From the IMG/VR virus record IMGVR_UViG_2529292873_000018: a stretch of DNA of 4,140 nucleotides; one strand, given 5' to 3'. Below, in pieces: positions 1-4,140 of the stretch (positions within the stretch are counted from its first letter, which is position 1; each line of letters begins with the position of its first letter). The position numbers and the translations under genes were made by a program. Source of the stretch: a virus (Duplodnaviria > Heunggongvirae > Uroviricota > Caudoviricetes). The notes below the pieces were generated by a model, which did not search any database, had not been told where the DNA came from, and saw only the letters and a program-made list of their open reading frames with translations.

Positions 1-1236
1 CTACGATAACCGCGCATTCAACATGGCTATCTGTTCGTCGTTCATGTCATCAATCCACATACCGTAAATTTCATACACCATCTGCGCAGTTTCATGCCCC
101 ATTTGGCTGGCTATAAATGCCGGGTTCGCTCCTGCCGTCAACAGCCAGCAGGCAAAAGTATGCCGCGTATGGTACGGATTACGACGGCGAATACCAGCAC
201 GTTTTACTGCTGCATTCCACCTTGCCCCCAAACTGCTTACCGAGTAATAAGGTTTTTGTTTTCCGTTACACACCCTGGGCATGAAAACAAAATGCAGTTT
301 TTGCTTTTCGGTTCTGCCGTACTCCCGATGGTAAAAGGTGATTTCGCTTTTGCGATGATGCCCGGTCAGTTTGTATTGCTCCTTCAGTGCTTCAAGAGCA
401 GGCTGCAGTAGTGTTACTGTCCGGATCCCGGCATTTGTTTTTGGGGGACCGAACATATCAAGTATCGTCAGGTTTCTTCTGACATTCACTATTCCCTTTT
501 CGAGATCCACATCCTCCCACGCCAGAGCTGCCAGTTCCCCGTGACGAAGTCCTGAGTAAACGGCAAATTTCCACAAGTTCTGGCTCTGTCCTTTTTCACT
601 TTCCATTAATGCATTGAATTCTGTTTTAGATAACGGATCAGGCTTTATTCTGTTTCGCTGTAATTTTTTTACTCCTTCAAATGGTTTGGTTGATATAAAT
701 CCCGACTGATACGCAAAACGCAACAGCGAACAGAGCAGGGCGATATAGTTATCAACTGTGCGCACGGTTCTTCCTTTTTTGTTGGATCTTGGATTATCCA
801 GGTAAAGCGTTTCTCCATGCAGCAGTTCATTCCGGTAGTTTAAGATATCGCTATAACGAATATGTGATATCGGGGTACTTTCACAAATTATTATTCTGAG
901 TGTTTTTAATTGTGATTTTGTTTTCTTCATTGTGTTTGTTGTTAACTCTGTCTCTTTAATTTTTGTCCAGATATCACAAAGCTCTCCGAACGTTTTTATG
1001 ACTCTCGTTGTCACCATTTTTGCCCCAGTGCTGGACTGGGGAAAACGTCTTAAATACTCAAATTCACCGGAGTTTATTTCATGAACTATCAGCGCTCTTA
1101 AATTTCCGGCCTTTTTAATATTACTGTTTGTAATCTCCCAGCCTTTTAATGTTTCCCGACATCGTTTTCCTCGAAACATGAACCAGATGCGAATGTATCT
1201 ACCTCTAATCTCGACACCTGTTGGTAATTTAGACAT
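1..1236 (-). CDS. intR: Prophage tyrosine-type site-specific integrase (411 aa, complete)
   Basis: Minus-strand ORF with ATG at 1234-1236 and TAG stop at 1-3. The translation (MSKLPTGVEIRGRYIRIWFMFRGKRCRETLKGW...) is recognised as the Rac prophage integrase IntR. C-terminal half carries tyrosine-recombinase hallmarks: R in LRHGELAALAWEDV, H-x-x-R in HTRHTFACWLL, and a terminal Tyr in MVYEIYGMW. AT-rich 5' third (about 860-1000) is typical of a horizontally acquired arm-binding domain. Identity is from memory, not a search. Confidence 0.9.
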   Translation of the reverse strand: MSKLPTGVEIRGRYIRIWFMFRGKRCRETLKGWEITNSNIKKAGNLRALIVHEINSGEFEYLRRFPQSSTGAKMVTTRVIKTFGELCDIWTKIKETELTTNTMKKTKSQLKTLRIIICESTPISHIRYSDILNYRNELLHGETLYLDNPRSNKKGRTVRTVDNYIALLCSLLRFAYQSGFISTKPFEGVKKLQRNRIKPDPLSKTEFNALMESEKGQSQNLWKFAVYSGLRHGELAALAWEDVDLEKGIVNVRRNLTILDMFGPPKTNAGIRTVTLLQPALEALKEQYKLTGHHRKSEITFYHREYGRTEKQKLHFVFMPRVCNGKQKPYYSVSSLGARWNAAVKRAGIRRRNPYHTRHTFACWLLTAGANPAFIASQMGHETAQMVYEIYGMWIDDMNDEQIAMLNARLS

Positions 1237-1237
1237 A

Positions 1238-1453
1238 TCATGAGTCTTTGATAAACTGATTTATCTTTGGATAGTTGTACCAGATAATCCCTCGTTTGCT
1301 GTCTGGCTTACCTAAAGGAGATACTCGTTTGAAGTGGAAGCCCTCCACCCAACAGTTCTGGCGGTATGCTTCAATTTGTCTGGCCCCCAGACCAGTGCGA
1401 AGCATCAGGCCGTATTCAACCATCCACTCTTCATTAAAGATTACTTGTGCCAT
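1238..1453 (-). CDS. ydaQ: Small excisionase-like / AlpA-type DNA-binding protein (71 aa)
   Basis: The ORF track starts at a TTG at 1475-1477 (79 aa). The first ATG is at 1451-1453 and is preceded by a Shine-Dalgarno GAGGTGA (minus strand, about 1458-1464), giving 71 aa ([35 protein letters not shown]...), the size I recall for Rac YdaQ/XisR. Its TGA stop (1238-1240) sits 1 nt upstream of the intR ATG, the classic xis-int arrangement. Confidence 0.8.
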
Positions 1454-1490
1454 CGCATCACCTCTGGCAGGCGCCAATGTTAGACTGAAA

Positions 1491-1518
1491 TTGACGCCCG
1501 ATGTTGATTATTAATAAT
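1491..1518 (+). promoter_or_regulatory. Candidate sigma70-like promoter firing rightward, antisense to ydaC/ralR (TTGACG -35, 16-bp spacer, AATAAT -10)
   Basis: Plus strand TTGACG at 1491-1496 and AATAAT at 1513-1518, in the ydaQ-ydaC intergenic region. A second good -10-like hexamer TACAAT lies at 1542-1547 without a convincing -35. By-eye motif match only; no experimental or computational scoring available. Confidence 0.2.
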
Positions 1519-1531
1519 CAGCTATGAAGTT

Positions 1532-1741
1532 TTAATTTGAATACAATGCAATTCTCGAGGACTGAAGTTTCTCGCAATTAAAATTTATCAGTTTTACTTT
1601 CTGCTCTCTGGAAACGCCTGCTTCTTTTTTACCTGAGAGCATTTTTTCGCATTCTGATTTCGTTAGTTTAGATTTTGAATATCTTGTCCAGTTAGTAGGA
1701 GTGCCACCTTCCTTTTCAATAGTGGCGGTAATTTTATACAT
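1532..1741 (-). CDS. ydaC: Small protein of unknown function, YdaC-like (69 aa)
   Basis: The ORF track gives 93 aa from an ATG at 1813, but that extension overlaps ralR out of frame for about 80 nt. The internal ATG at 1739-1741 is preceded by a strong SD GGAGGTG (minus strand, 1745-1751) and gives 69 aa (MYKITATIEKEGGTPTNWTRYSKSKLTKSECEKML...), matching the size I recall for Rac YdaC. TAA stop at 1532-1534. Confidence 0.75.
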   Translation of the reverse strand: MYKITATIEKEGGTPTNWTRYSKSKLTKSECEKMLSGKKEAGVSREQKVKLINFNCEKLQSSRIALYSN

Positions 1742-1750
1742 GAACACCTC
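1555..1750 (+). ncRNA. ralA: Possible location of the RalA antisense sRNA antitoxin (coordinates approximate, not resolvable from sequence alone)
   Basis: Established knowledge, from memory: RalA is a roughly 179-nt Hfq-dependent sRNA encoded opposite ralR with a 16-nt overlap with the ralR coding region. Placement antisense to ydaC, overlapping the ralR 3' end, is my best recollection, supported only weakly by plus-strand promoter-like hexamers at 1491-1518 and 1542-1547. No clear intrinsic terminator was found on the plus strand. Confidence 0.2.
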
Positions 1751-1928
1751 CATTATTATTTCCAGTGGTTCGTTTATTCCATCTTTCGAGTGCTTCTTTT
1801 TCACTTCCACCATAACCGGTTCGGGATTCGCATCCGTTACACTTCGCTCGGTAATATCCTGAAATGGCTTTCACCGTTACTGATGGACAACCACAAAATG
1901 GACATGGTTTAACATTGTCATATCTCAT
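1734..1928 (-). CDS. ralR: RalR/Lar-like small zinc-ribbon protein (restriction alleviation protein; reported DNase toxin of the RalR/RalA type I toxin-antitoxin pair), 64 aa
   Basis: Minus-strand frame with three in-frame ATGs (1965-1967, 1938-1940, 1926-1928). The 64-aa product from 1928 (MRYDNVKPCPFCGCPSVTVKAISGYYRAKCNGCESRTGYGGSEKEALERWNKRTTGNNNGGVHV) matches my recollection of RalR. It contains CPFC...CNGC, a C4 zinc-ribbon-like motif. No good SD precedes any of the three ATGs. Stop at 1734-1736; the last codons overlap the ydaC start and SD. Confidence 0.75.
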   Translation of the reverse strand: MRYDNVKPCPFCGCPSVTVKAISGYYRAKCNGCESRTGYGGSEKEALERWNKRTTGNNNGGVHV

Positions 1929-1957
1929 AATTTTTCTCATAAAAAATATTTCAAGTT

Positions 1958-1976
1958 GGCGGTGCATTACACCGCC
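1958..1976 (-). other. GC-rich stem-loop (7-bp perfect stem GGCGGTG / CACCGCC, 5-nt loop) in the recT-ralR intercistronic region
   Basis: Plus strand 1958-1964 ggcggtg, loop 1965-1969 catta, 1970-1976 caccgcc. On the sense (minus) strand it begins 8 nt after the recT stop and ends 29 nt before the ralR ATG at 1928. The loop contains an in-frame ATG (1965-1967). A U6 run follows only about 11 nt downstream, so it is not a canonical intrinsic terminator. Confidence 0.5.
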
Positions 1977-1984
1977 AGGCTGAA

Positions 1985-2795
1985 TTATTCCTCTGAATTA
2001 TCGATTACACTGTATTCCCCGGTTAATACAGAGGAATCTGCAGGATCGATTGTCAGTGGTTCCTTTTCATCCATTGATACTGCACGCTGGATCTCAATTG
2101 ATACGGGCAGATATTTGAACAGGCGACGAATAGCCGTTTTCTTTGCCATTTCTTCCCAGTGAGTTACCCACGGCCCGTTATTACCAGCTTTACTCAGGCT
2201 GCGCACCAGCTCAATCTGTTTGCGCGTCATAACTTCAAACTGAGTACCTCCGTCTTTCAGTCTTGCGACAGCATAGACGTGGGTAACCGGGGCATCTTCG
2301 TTTTCTCCCGGGCGGTGTATTAACTTTTCATCAAGGCCAAATTCGAAGCTAAACTCGTCACCTTCACGGACAACACGGGCTGACAGGCTGGCGATTTGAC
2401 CAGAACGGCGAGCCAGATCAATCATGCCGCGATAGCCAATGATTAGCTGAACGTTCTTTTTACCGCTCTTTTCGTTTTTATTACCAAAAGGCAGTAAATA
2501 TGCATGACCGAGGGCGCTACCTGGCTCAAGTCCGAGCTGTGAACACTGTACGATGGCACCGATAAAACTCGTCGAGTCACAGTTTCTTAGTTCCGGTACT
2601 TTACGGATTTCTGTTGTAGCAATGCGGATCATGCGTTCCGCTGTCATTGTGACGTGGCAGAGCTGCTGCCAGTTGCGCTTTCATTGCCGGGCTGTTAATC
2701 ACGCACAGCACATCCTTATCGTTAACTGCTGCTGGTGCACGGTTTCCCTGAGTTTTTTGCAGATCGGCTTTTGCGATAGGTGGTTGCTTAATCAT
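1985..2795 (-). pseudogene. recT: recT (RecT single-strand annealing protein) disrupted by a +1 frameshift at position 2648; N-terminal 49 codons (2649-2795) and C-terminal 220 codons (1985-2647) are in different frames
   Basis: ORF 2601-2852(-) contains [49 protein letters not shown] and then runs out of frame (NDSGTHDPHCYNRNP, stop at 2601-2603). ORF 1985-2647(-) begins MTAERMIRIATTEIRKVPELRNC... and runs to the RecT C-terminus ...GEYSVIDNSEE. The two frames differ by 1 nt (2852 mod 3 = 2, 2647 mod 3 = 1). Minus-strand sequence at the junction is CCA CGT CAC A ATG ACA GCG, so one extra A (plus-strand T at 2648) lies between the His-49 codon and the Met-50 codon. 49 + 220 = 269 aa, the length of intact RecT as I recall it. 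Start ATG at 2793-2795 with SD AAGGAG (plus coordinates 2804-2809), 8 nt spacing. Confidence 0.8.
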
Positions 2796-4140
2796 TTGCA
2801 TACTCCTTAGCCCAGCGGGGCAGTGATAACGTCTTAATAGCTGGCCATTCATCGGTATTTAGGCAGTCAGCCAGGGTCCGCAGATTGCGGTGATATTCCT
2901 GCTGGCCTGCCAGTTTTGCTTCTTCGCCCATCATGAAAATCTCAACCGGATAACGTCCGCATTCAACAGTTGTGCTGGCAACCAGAAAAACGAAAGTTGG
3001 CTGCACGCCAAACTGTGCTTCATAACCGTCACTGTAGAATGCATCCTGAACGTGATAGCGGTAGTCGTAATAAGCCGTTTTGAATCGTTGAATATCCGCT
3101 GTGGTTTTCACGTCCATGATCCAGTGAAATTCAGGAATAATTTTGTCCGGACGGCACCGACACAAAATTCCTGTTTCCGGATCTTCCCAGTAAATTGATG
3201 ATTCAGCGTGTCCGGCGCTTTCAACAAGCCATTGCCCCAGCGGCAAAGCCATAACGCTTTGATACATGAGTTCAATTTTCCGGCCTTCTTCCGCAGTGAT
3301 AACCGTTTTTCCTGTGCTTGCGCATTCCATCAGAAACGCTTTCTCTTCTTCTTTTCCGGCGTTTGTACGGCGGTTAAATTCAGGTGCTACGATAAAGCGG
3401 TTACTGAATTCTTCCGGTTCAAGTACCCGGCAGTGGAAAGCGGTTCCTAAATCGAGCGTTTTTGTCTTTGTAGTGTCCACGGGAGCATCTTTACGCCACA
3501 AATACAGTGCCGGAGTATCAGCAATGTCATCGAGCTGAGACTTACTGACACCGGGACCTGCGTGGTAATTCTCATTCGAAATTCCGTAATAAATACCTGG
3601 CTCTATGTCTTCTACGATTACGGGATCTGCGACTTCGCCAGTTTCATCACTGCAATCGCGATGCGGATCGCTGCCAGCATTCTCATTGTGCGGATGTTCA
3701 GCGCCTTCCATTTCCTCCGGATCTTTTTCCTGAACTTCAACCTGATACTCTTCATCGAATGTTTCTTGGTATGTTGCGTCGCCCATCACCGCGCCACAAT
3801 CAGGGCAGTTGCCGCCGCCGGTCTGACCGCAGGCGGTGCAGGCTTTTTCCACTTCCTGTTGCGCCACTGGTTCAGGCTGTTTCGTTTCTGGCTCGTTTTG
3901 TAACGCATTTGGACTGTTTTGTTCCGCTTTTTGGTAGTTCCGTTCCGATTCATGCTGGTTCTGGTTCACAGAATCGCGGGTCTGGATCCCCTTAATCCAT
4001 TTCGGATCATTCGGGTCACTAATCCCTTCAACAAATTCACCACGTGATGCAGCAAGCAACTTATCGGCGTCAGGCTGGCTGATATTGGCTGCCTGCATAA
4101 TTTTGTTTACTTCGTCAGCGGTAACTTTATCGGCTCTGGT
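2788..4140 (-). CDS. recE: recE (exonuclease VIII), 3' portion encoding the C-terminal 450 aa; 5' end lies beyond the right edge of the window
   Basis: Minus-strand frame is open from 4140 to the TAA stop at 2788-2790; the listed ORF start (M at 4096-4098) is internal. Translation ends ...[16 protein letters not shown], recognised as the RecE C-terminus. PD-(D/E)XK nuclease motif is intact: RPDK (D codon 3145-3147) and IMDVK (D codon 3112-3114, K codon 3106-3108), consistent with RecE active-site residues I recall as D748, D759 and K761 if the protein is 866 aa. Upstream is an acidic low-complexity region with a CxxC-x7-CxxC cluster (3796-3840). Confidence 0.9.

Follow-up and report, generated by a model that had tools for sequence, protein, structure and literature searches.

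A probable RalR/RalA type I toxin-antitoxin locus of the Rac prophage, with the RalA small RNA encoded opposite rcbA

The small zinc-ribbon gene ralR raises the question of whether an RNA antitoxin is encoded beside it, where that RNA lies, and whether it behaves as the antitoxin of a type I system. The DNA analysed here (the window) is a stretch of 4,140 nucleotides from the Caudoviricetes record IMGVR_UViG_2529292873_000018. Window positions 920-2109 are identical base for base to Escherichia coli K-12 MG1655, and the K-12 features ralA (b4714), rcbA/ydaC (b1347), and ralR (b1348) transfer exactly onto them with 100% identity. A preliminary description had expected a plus-strand RalA of about 179 nt at approximately 1520-1760, sharing 16 nt with ralR. 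The K-12 annotation and the Rfam RalA model RF02694 (225.1 bits, gathering threshold 170 bits; E 7e-55; model positions 1-179) both place RalA, the 179-nt small RNA antitoxin of RalR, at 1557-1735 on the plus strand, corresponding to K-12 1413556-1413734, and mapping from the K-12 annotation did not put it elsewhere. Other Rfam matches in the window (HrrF, Transposase-2, and SAM_alpha) were far under their thresholds, with E values of 2-9. RalA had also been expected to run antisense over both ydaC and ralR: it does lie fully within rcbA/ydaC, but its overlap with ralR amounts to 2 nt of the stop codon. Toward rcbA, RalA is a cis-antisense RNA; on ralR, it acts in trans. Judged from sequence alone, the elements of the locus do not rise above chance (four promoter-like sites versus 1.7 ± 1.6 expected); they count as real because they are identical to K-12 and matched by the Rfam RalA model. 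Outside the RalR/RalA locus the window departs from K-12, with a frameshifted recT and a diverged recE region. Very probably, the locus is best explained as RalR/RalA, the type I toxin-antitoxin system that belongs to the cryptic prophage Rac. The locus and its small RNA are already described, in the K-12 annotation and in a 2014 paper (Guo et al., PMC4041452), and the preliminary description had identified them correctly.

The toxin gene ralR (lar/ydaB; 1734-1928, minus strand) encodes a 64-aa zinc-ribbon protein of the Lar family, matching the NCBIfam equivalog model NF007260 (166 bits, cut-off 113), TIGR03655 (55.3 bits, cut-off 39.6), and Pfam PF14354 (53.5 bits, cut-off 28.6). Its CxxC...CxxC motif is formed by C9/C12 and C30/C33, with C14 in addition, and a search for relatives among solved structures gave only a spurious weak match to CbpD. 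Expression of RalR is reported to be harmful (PMC4041452). RalR is a hydrophilic, Cys-rich protein and not the small hydrophobic membrane peptide that is typical of type I toxins, though not obligatory for them, and a review treats it as an exception among such toxins (PMC4147584). The three in-frame ATGs noted earlier are present at 1967, 1940, and 1928, the last of which gives the 64-aa product, and the claim that ralR has no convincing Shine-Dalgarno (SD) sequence held up: the anti-SD duplex reaches -2.7 kcal/mol at the annotated start and +0.4 kcal/mol at the 1940 ATG, and that of the 1967 ATG reaches -6.1 kcal/mol but with a useless 2-nt spacing, compared with -10.6 for rcbA, -8.6 for recT, -7.1 for xisR, and a mean of -2.6 kcal/mol for all ATGs in the window. 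Fold energy points to a GC-rich hairpin in the ralR leader (1957-1977, minus strand), whose loop contains the earliest of the in-frame ATGs (1967). The leader from 1990 to 1915 folds at -23.8 kcal/mol, versus -9.7 ± 2.5 kcal/mol for shuffled sequences (z -5.7), and the stem is retained in all E. coli variants, two of which have a different loop and flanks. The poor SD and this very stable hairpin would limit ralR output further. A W50stop allele of ralR occurs in approximately 308 of 1,763 genomes, where rcbA is intact; such alleles are compatible with ralR being costly.

The 16 nt that RalA was said to share with the ralR coding region could be located at RalA 1619-1634 and ralR 1791-1806, in agreement with the published element (PMC4041452). 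The seed, or '16-nt repeat' (TGCTTCTTTTTTACCT; RalA nt 63-78, plus strand), matches the plus strand of ralR at 14 of its 16 positions, including an uninterrupted run of 11, and its target in the ralR mRNA (minus strand) spans CDS nt 123-138, codons 41-46 (GSEKEA), a site invariant in eight of nine Escherichia variants. The 16-mer duplex contains 14 base pairs at -17.5 kcal/mol. Pairing was evaluated by the longest perfect match, which replaced full-length duplex energy; the latter had returned an unrealistic global duplex between RalA and the ralR mRNA (-81.6 kcal/mol, with an energy as low or lower in 4 of 500 shuffles) and was rejected. A perfect match of 11 nt is reached by 12 of 500 dinucleotide shuffles (2.4%), making it modestly unusual by sequence alone, and it consists of in-phase Lys-Glu-Ala codons in both genes. 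The complementarity to the toxin mRNA that is expected of a type I antitoxin is present at these two sites, with functional proof coming solely from the literature (PMC4041452). Guo et al. altered the seed by point mutation, by a 4-nt change, and in a double mutant with compensating changes; mutations that spared the YdaC protein and the cis overlap abolished protection, and compensatory ralR changes restored it (PMC4041452). In the same study, start- and stop-codon mutants of ydaC indicated that RalA RNA, not YdaC protein, blocks RalR toxicity; RalA required Hfq, and it decreased RalR protein and not ralR mRNA (PMC4041452). On this basis, RalA nt 63-78 would pair with ralR codons 41-46 in an Hfq-requiring manner, and RalR protein would fall with no fall in ralR mRNA. 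For a translational block, the position of the target, approximately 120 nt from the start of the coding sequence, is unusual. A literature search for RalA, ralR, and RIL-seq together found no paper. The repeat is absent from the Citrobacter ralR-DUF1187 pair (6 of 16 positions matched), and in 33-34 of approximately 1,907 locus-bearing complete E. coli genomes an intact ralR is accompanied by the CEC15-type allele, a 12-nt deletion of RalA nt 59-70, after which complementarity of at least 8 nt to ralR is gone.

Conserved secondary structure was not found for RalA. The Rfam consensus structure and the minimum free energy (MFE) fold predict a 5′ stem-loop at RalA nt 2-39 (1558-1595, plus strand), pairs of which are disrupted by natural variation at nt 7 and at nt 36. 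The MFE of RalA is no better than that of shuffled sequences (z -0.26), the Rfam structure showed no covariation across 11 sequences, nine of them distinct (score reached by 60 of 500 shuffles), and most changes among the nine distinct sequences break predicted pairs. The published structure is a single-sequence prediction (PMC4041452). As a separate observation, the sequences that entered the covariation test varied little, and rcbA codon constraints dominated that variation.

Over its full length, RalA is antisense to rcbA/ydaC (1532-1741, minus strand), a 69-aa reading frame that was concluded in 2014 to encode no protein (Guo et al., PMC4041452). The product of rcbA matches Pfam PF06688 (DUF1187) at 131.7 bits (cut-off 20.7) and phrog_5753. 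Pairwise dN/dS is 0.05 (L008 vs. L009), 0.15 (L012 vs. L017), and 0.14-0.31 in other pairs, and codon position 3 holds 13 of 19 Escherichia polymorphisms. The strong SD sequence of rcbA, GGAGGTG, lies inside the 3′ end of ralR (1745-1751, minus strand); its anti-SD duplex is the best in the window, and its GGAGG core (1747-1751) is present in nine of nine variants. By these sequence measures, rcbA is a genuine protein-coding gene under selection, in the DUF1187 family. An AlphaFold2 model of RcbA (pLDDT 76.3) has a beta-beta-alpha-beta-beta fold, for which Foldseek found no match in the PDB at E ≤ 0.001, and there are no solved structures among its sequence relatives. The phage p56 uracil-DNA-glycosylase inhibitor, the best Foldseek match, was rejected as a likeness (E 0.63, not significant).

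These comparisons allow, as a tentative possibility, that rcbA is a translated and functional phage protein, that RalA is a young, Escherichia-restricted antisense transcript whose seed is a dispensable coincidence of Lys-Glu-Ala codons, and that ralR is not under a classical type I antitoxin; natively, ralR would instead be controlled by repression of the prophage, by its poor initiation, by the hairpin in its leader, and perhaps also by the cis overlap of 179 bp. The seed would be dispensable in nature because strains that have deleted it retain an intact ralR. The cis overlap invites a second alternative. ralR and rcbA overlap by 8 nt (ATGTATAA) and no terminator lies between them, so the native ralR message would most likely run on through rcbA, and RalA would then also be the perfect 179-nt cis-antisense partner of this co-transcript. 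We think it unlikely that this is how RalA natively acts, pairing along 179 bp with the rcbA portion of a ralR-rcbA(-xisR-intR) co-transcript. Control would then bear on rcbA, on genes downstream, or on what becomes of the entire message, and trans pairing would matter mainly in plasmid overexpression. The arrangement itself speaks for this alternative, as RalA sits wholly inside rcbA on the opposite strand, as do the reality and selection of rcbA with its leading SD and the natural 12-nt deletion, which removes the trans seed but by its nature keeps the cis complementarity, beside an intact ralR; a review also raises an interaction via overlapping ends, with the ends not mapped (PMC4147584). 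Against it, a ralR-only transcript was neutralised by RalA in trans in a dual-plasmid test (PMC4041452), and the seed mutants described above lost protection with the cis overlap unchanged and regained it by compensation in ralR. RNase III cleavage at ralR/ralA was not detected either, though the prophage operon was repressed in those cultures.

A third alternative takes protein constraint as essentially the whole explanation: the DNA would be maintained as rcbA, and RalA would be an antisense transcript of recent origin, confined to one lineage and contributing little or nothing as a native antitoxin, because ralR would already be rendered harmless by repression of the prophage, by poor initiation, and by its frequent inactivation. 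DUF1187 is conserved across genera under dN/dS of 0.05-0.3 and occurs without ralR in three of them (Izhakiella, Symbiopectobacterium, and Buttiauxella), Citrobacter-type loci reach just 29-35 bits with the RalA model, which finds nothing further out, and variation in RalA tracks the third codon position of rcbA while breaking predicted RalA pairs; the loss of the seed in approximately 34 genomes and the W50stop alleles next to an intact rcbA point the same way. The transcript is, however, detected in wild-type cells (PMC4041452, PMC12266141), in eight of eight conditions by RNA-seq (PMC12266141), its -10 box is conserved or improved, and genetic experiments support an RNA antitoxin directly (PMC4041452). 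Guo et al. moreover read the increase in double-strand breaks after ydaC deletion as loss of ralA releasing RalR (PMC4041452). We regard this alternative as improbable.

For the type I locus that we favor, RalA begins at G1557 according to the literature; its transcription would be driven by a TACAAT -10 box (1542-1547, plus strand) without a -35 element and would stop at 1702-1735, where a hairpin followed by U4 forms a weak signal of non-canonical type. The 5′ end was placed by Guo et al. (2014) 62 nt upstream of the repeat, by one primer extension from an overexpression plasmid, and the 3′ end was predicted only (PMC4041452). The Term-seq supplement tables of PMC7815308, which are possibly incomplete, contain no ralA, ralR, or rcbA entries and no K-12 coordinates. 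By sigma-70 criteria (-35 and -10 hexamers 16-18 nt apart, -10 box 5-9 nt before +1), TACAAT matches five of six -10 positions, has no recognisable -35, and ends 9 nt before the mapped +1; it is kept in nine of nine Escherichia variants and equals the consensus TATAAT in three, a pattern that suggests that it drives RalA transcription. An alternative -10 box, TGCAAT (1547-1552), was rejected because T1552C destroys it in the three variants that improve TACAAT to TATAAT. The preliminary description had proposed two promoters, and both are present as described; TACAAT fits the mapped 5′ end, whereas TTGACG-16-AATAAT (1491-1518, plus strand) would initiate near 1525, some 30 nt too early, and is probably not used for RalA. 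That RalA is transcribed from TTGACG-16-AATAAT and that 1557 is a processing site is very improbable: this is the sole plus-strand site in 1400-2050 with both hexamers (10/12), and the competing 5′ end comes from a single primer extension, but qRT-PCR gave no signal for a fragment extending upstream of +1 (Guo et al., PMC4041452), and some variants have another excisionase and a replaced -35 but retain the RalA region and TATAAT. At the other end, the stem GCCAC 1703-1707/GTGGC 1722-1726 followed by GGTAATTTTATACA was found as described and is the published predicted RalA terminator, given there as a hairpin of -6.8 kcal/mol (Guo et al., PMC4041452). In the Rfam structure it is helix 6 (stem 1702-1707/1722-1727, 14-nt loop, TTTT at 1732-1735, plus strand), with TAATTTT downstream of the stem. 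A scan of 1400-2050 for canonical intrinsic terminators (GC-rich stem, loop of 3-8 nt, at least five U in the next 8 nt) found none; the RalA hairpin, with 5-6 pairs, fails it because its loop is 14 nt and only four T follow. The natural variant CH458 disrupts one pair of the stem.

In itself, the finding is a rediscovery of ralA (b4714; RF02694) and of the 2014 paper. The locus serves as a positive control, in which a reader without tools put a known small RNA within a few tens of bases and chose the correct -10 box and terminator. For toxin-antitoxin and prophage specialists, the comparisons have a modest interest: a selected rcbA, natural seed deletions, and a toxin truncated in approximately one-sixth of carriers bear on whether the system shows genuine type I behavior at native expression, and equally on the role of RcbA.

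Among known systems, the closest is RalR/RalA of the K-12 Rac prophage (Guo et al. 2014, PMC4041452; RF02694), with which the window shares gene order, RalA coordinates, the 16-nt element, and the predicted terminator, with zero differences within the locus. Type I systems whose antitoxins are divergent or trans-encoded (TisB/IstR-1, ShoB/OhsC, and ZorO/OrzO) resemble RalR/RalA in having an antitoxin that adjoins the toxin gene and a short pairing of 16-21 nt in place of a long overlap. Their RNAs, however, pair in the toxin 5′ UTR and do not need Hfq, whereas RalA pairs approximately 120 nt into the coding sequence and is reported to be Hfq-dependent, and TisB, ShoB, and ZorO are small hydrophobic membrane peptides, in contrast to the soluble, Cys-rich, Lar-family RalR, a reported DNase. 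SymE/SymR, with other type I pairs of the cis-antisense kind, is alike in that the toxin is a reported nuclease, not a membrane peptide, and the antisense RNA lies opposite a protein gene; SymR overlaps the 5′ end and start codon of symE itself, whereas RalA overlaps the neighbor rcbA, which is not its reported target. RalR exceeds the threshold of each of the three Lar-family models (PF14354, TIGR03655, and phrog_599) and has the CxxC...CxxC motif. The family is one of restriction alleviation, whereas for RalR Guo et al. report DNase toxicity (PMC4041452), and the assignment made here is one of sequence membership.

The RalR/RalA feature is already known and curated. Transfer of the K-12 annotation places the ralA noncoding RNA (b4714) on the plus strand at 1557-1735 (K-12 1413556-1413734), and rcbA (ydaC; b1347) and ralR (b1348) on the minus strand at 1532-1741 and 1734-1928, respectively. 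Rfam model RF02694 (RalA, "RalR antitoxin") independently matches 1557-1735 (plus strand) over its full length at 225.1 bits (E 7e-55; gathering threshold 170 bits), and annotation and model together give the end positions of RalA. The 5′ end mapped by primer extension precedes the 16-nt repeat by 62 nt and corresponds to window position 1557, and the 3′ end was inferred, not mapped, from a hairpin with 5 bp, a 14-nt loop, four U, and -6.8 kcal/mol (PMC4041452). A canonical terminator scan found none, and the weak stem noticed near the expected 3′ end (GCCAC 1703-1707/GTGGC 1722-1726, then GGTAATTTTAT) is, with TAATTTT, helix 6 of the RalA model and the terminator predicted by Guo et al. RalA was detected by RNA-seq in all eight of eight conditions in a 2025 study (PMC12266141). 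The preliminary description of this locus is confirmed in its observations and supported in its interpretation, with corrections: RalA, which it had expected antisense over ydaC and ralR, lies wholly opposite rcbA and shares with ralR no more than 1734-1735, within the stop codon.

The minus strand carries a lambdoid prophage left arm, consisting in the ORF map of integrase, excisionase, two small ORFs, recT, and a recE-like nuclease. By megablast, 1935 of the 5426 complete E. coli genomes carry 1200-2300, where it is annotated as intR, xisR, rcbA, ralR, and recT of Rac-type prophages, and 920-2109 is identical base for base to K-12 MG1655 (NC_000913.3; window coordinate = K-12 coordinate - 1411999). 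The window as a whole differs from K-12 by four SNPs in intR and strong divergence from 2555 on, and the best match of its right part is 98.3%, with no exact one among complete genomes. The recT gene is split over two minus-strand frames (2601-2852 and 1985-2647) with a break near 2648: frame -2 (2795-2649) aligns with K-12 RecT residues 1-49, and frame -3 (2647-1988) with residues 50-269. Either the gene is a frameshifted pseudogene or the break is a sequencing error. The recE-like ORF (2788-4098, minus strand) shares 90.6% identity with K-12 RecE residues 454-866 (PDDEXK domain, DUF3799); its N-terminal part is unlike K-12, and no complete E. coli genome matches the region exactly.

The RalA seed (nt 63-78; 1619-1634, TGCTTCTTTTTTACCT) is identical at 14 of 16 positions, 11 of them contiguous, to the ralR plus strand at 1791-1806 (TGCTTCTTTTTCACTT), which is nt 123-138 of the coding sequence (codons 41-46, GSEKEA). 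One of the two differences leaves a G-U pair, and the 16-mer duplex, with 14 base pairs, has a predicted energy of -17.5 kcal/mol. The repeat is an in-phase codon string in both genes (rcbA GGT AAA AAA GAA GCA; ralR AGT GAA AAA GAA GCA), and RalA matches the ralR region perfectly over 11 nt in 12 of 500 dinucleotide shuffles. The minimum free energy of RalA (-35.5 kcal/mol) is on par with shuffles (z -0.26), the Rfam structure finds no covariation support among 11 sequences (9 distinct), the covariation score being reached by 60/500 shuffles, and most natural changes break pairs. The case for pairing thus rests on published genetics rather than on sequence statistics. Protection drops with point mutations in the seed, disappears with a 4-nt seed mutation, and returns when ralR carries the matching change; ydaC DNA still protects against RalR with its start codon destroyed or a stop codon introduced; RalR protein falls and ralR mRNA does not; and RalA action requires Hfq (PMC4041452). 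In the published and best supported account, Hfq-dependent trans pairing lowers RalR synthesis. Separately, the RalA terminator loop holds a second near-match to the ralR target (1708-1718, CTTCCTTTTCA, vs 1793-1803, CTTCTTTTTCA; 10/11), both stretches encoding Glu-Lys-Glu; in the SMN152SH1-type variant, C1712T makes this near-match a perfect 11-mer.

RalR matches the NCBIfam equivalog NF007260 at 166 bits (cut-off 113) as well as Lar family models, and the product from 1928 is the 64-aa Cys protein described earlier (C9-x2-C12, C30-x2-C33, plus C14). Its weak initiation holds up by anti-Shine–Dalgarno (SD) duplex energy: among the three in-frame ATGs, the annotated start at 1928 scores -2.7 kcal/mol, that at 1940 +0.4, and the first, at 1967, -6.1 but with an unusable 2-nt spacing, against a mean of -2.6 for all 138 ATGs in the window, -8.6 for recT, and -7.1 for xisR. 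The ralR leader (1915-1990, minus strand) folds at -23.8 kcal/mol vs -9.7 ± 2.5 for shuffles (z -5.7). Its GC-rich 9-bp stem (1957-1977), with the first in-frame ATG in the loop and no U run directly after, persists in every E. coli variant, also in two whose loop, flanks, and upstream recombinase gene differ. Both the poor SD and the very stable leader may further limit ralR output. Two weak minus-strand promoter-like sites (9/12 each) lie upstream of the ralR start (2026-1997) and across it (1954-1927); the former, within the recT 3′ end, could be ralR's own promoter.

The main rival, or a complement, is that RalA acts as a cis-antisense RNA on a ralR-rcbA message. The two genes overlap (ATGTATAA) and no terminator separates them, so the native message probably includes rcbA, and RalA would then also be its 179-nt cis-antisense partner. 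This mechanism would account for strains that tolerate an intact ralR with a deleted seed. The deletion (12 nt, in frame; window 1615-1626) removes RalA nt 59-70, and with them most of the seed and four rcbA codons. Among the lost positions are nt 63 and 64, at which point mutations weaken the antitoxin, and no complementarity to ralR of at least 8 nt is left. Its exact junction occurs in 33-34 of ~1907 complete E. coli genomes that bear the locus, the isolates being from mouse, human, cat, and rodent; in CEC15, the example examined, ralR is intact. From these comparisons, the trans seed seems dispensable as long as the prophage is repressed. RalA supplied from a second plasmid neutralizes a ralR-only transcript (PMC4041452); a review points out that, as the ends had not been mapped, the overlapping ends might still interact (PMC4147584). 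Published data, from cultures in which the prophage operon is repressed, show no RNase III site at the ralR/ralA locus. The O157/EDL933-type allele (1779 and 1784) carries ralR W50stop, giving a 49-aa product with rcbA intact, and its exact 81-mer is found in 308/1763 locus-bearing genomes. Citrobacter-type loci match 6 of 16 seed positions, have an unrelated promoter region, and score 29-35 bits with the RalA model, which suggests that RalA as described is confined to Escherichia/Shigella Rac-like elements. A weaker rival than cis-antisense action takes RalA to be, for the most part, a by-product transcript from a region under protein constraint.

RcbA, encoded opposite RalA, matches Pfam DUF1187 (131.7 bits) and phrog_5753, and its SD, GGAGGTG (1745-1751), is the best in the window (-10.6 kcal/mol). 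Homologs with 47-67% identity occur in Citrobacter, Klebsiella, Izhakiella, Symbiopectobacterium, and Buttiauxella, with a ralR homolog upstream only in Citrobacter-type loci. Between loci L008 and L009, 20 of 26 rcbA differences fall at codon position 3 (dN/dS 0.05); dN/dS is 0.15 between L012 and L017, E. coli vs Citrobacter synonymous sites are saturated (pN 0.25), and 13/19 variable sites within Escherichia are at position 3. The rcbA gene is real and its reading frame is under purifying selection, which is compatible with RalA being functional as well. An AlphaFold2 model of RcbA (pLDDT 76) has no significant structural neighbor. At 1555, 2 nt ahead of the RalA +1, the K-12-type T does away with the rcbA stop (TGA, 62 aa) that most diverged variants use, extending RcbA to 69 aa. 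Three database RcbA proteins (P0041, P0072, and P0075) have a local frameshift, KKRSGRFQRAESK replacing KKEAGVSREQKVK, with the frame regained downstream in P0041; this suggests indels within the seed region's T/A run. The DUF1187 gene of Symbiopectobacterium prophages has a phage context different from Rac, with isrK and C4 antisense RNA (P1/P7-type immunity RNAs) downstream (L015 2243-2443 and L016 2243-2436, ~50-250 nt after DUF1187; L020 3307-3501, ~1.2 kb after).

Both antisense promoter candidates proposed earlier are present at the stated positions. A scan found four promoter-like sites vs 1.7 ± 1.6 expected; by sequence statistics alone, the promoter- and terminator-like elements are not beyond chance. 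Comparative data favor TACAAT (1542-1547) as the RalA -10 box: it ends 9 nt before +1, stays unchanged in six diverged Escherichia variants, and reads TATAAT in three, exactly those in which the overlapping alternative TGCAAT is destroyed. Transcription from TTGACG-16-AATAAT (1491-1518) with processing to the mapped 5′ end is unlikely, since its predicted start precedes +1 by ~30 nt, variants that carry another excisionase lack its -35, and no transcript was seen upstream of +1 (PMC4041452).

A real rcbA, a naturally deleted seed, frequent ralR truncation, and a conserved leader hairpin are worth a short follow-up. These comparative results do not amount to a new kind of system; among type I systems, RalR/RalA is unusual in pairing within the coding region and in its dependence on Hfq (PMC4147584).
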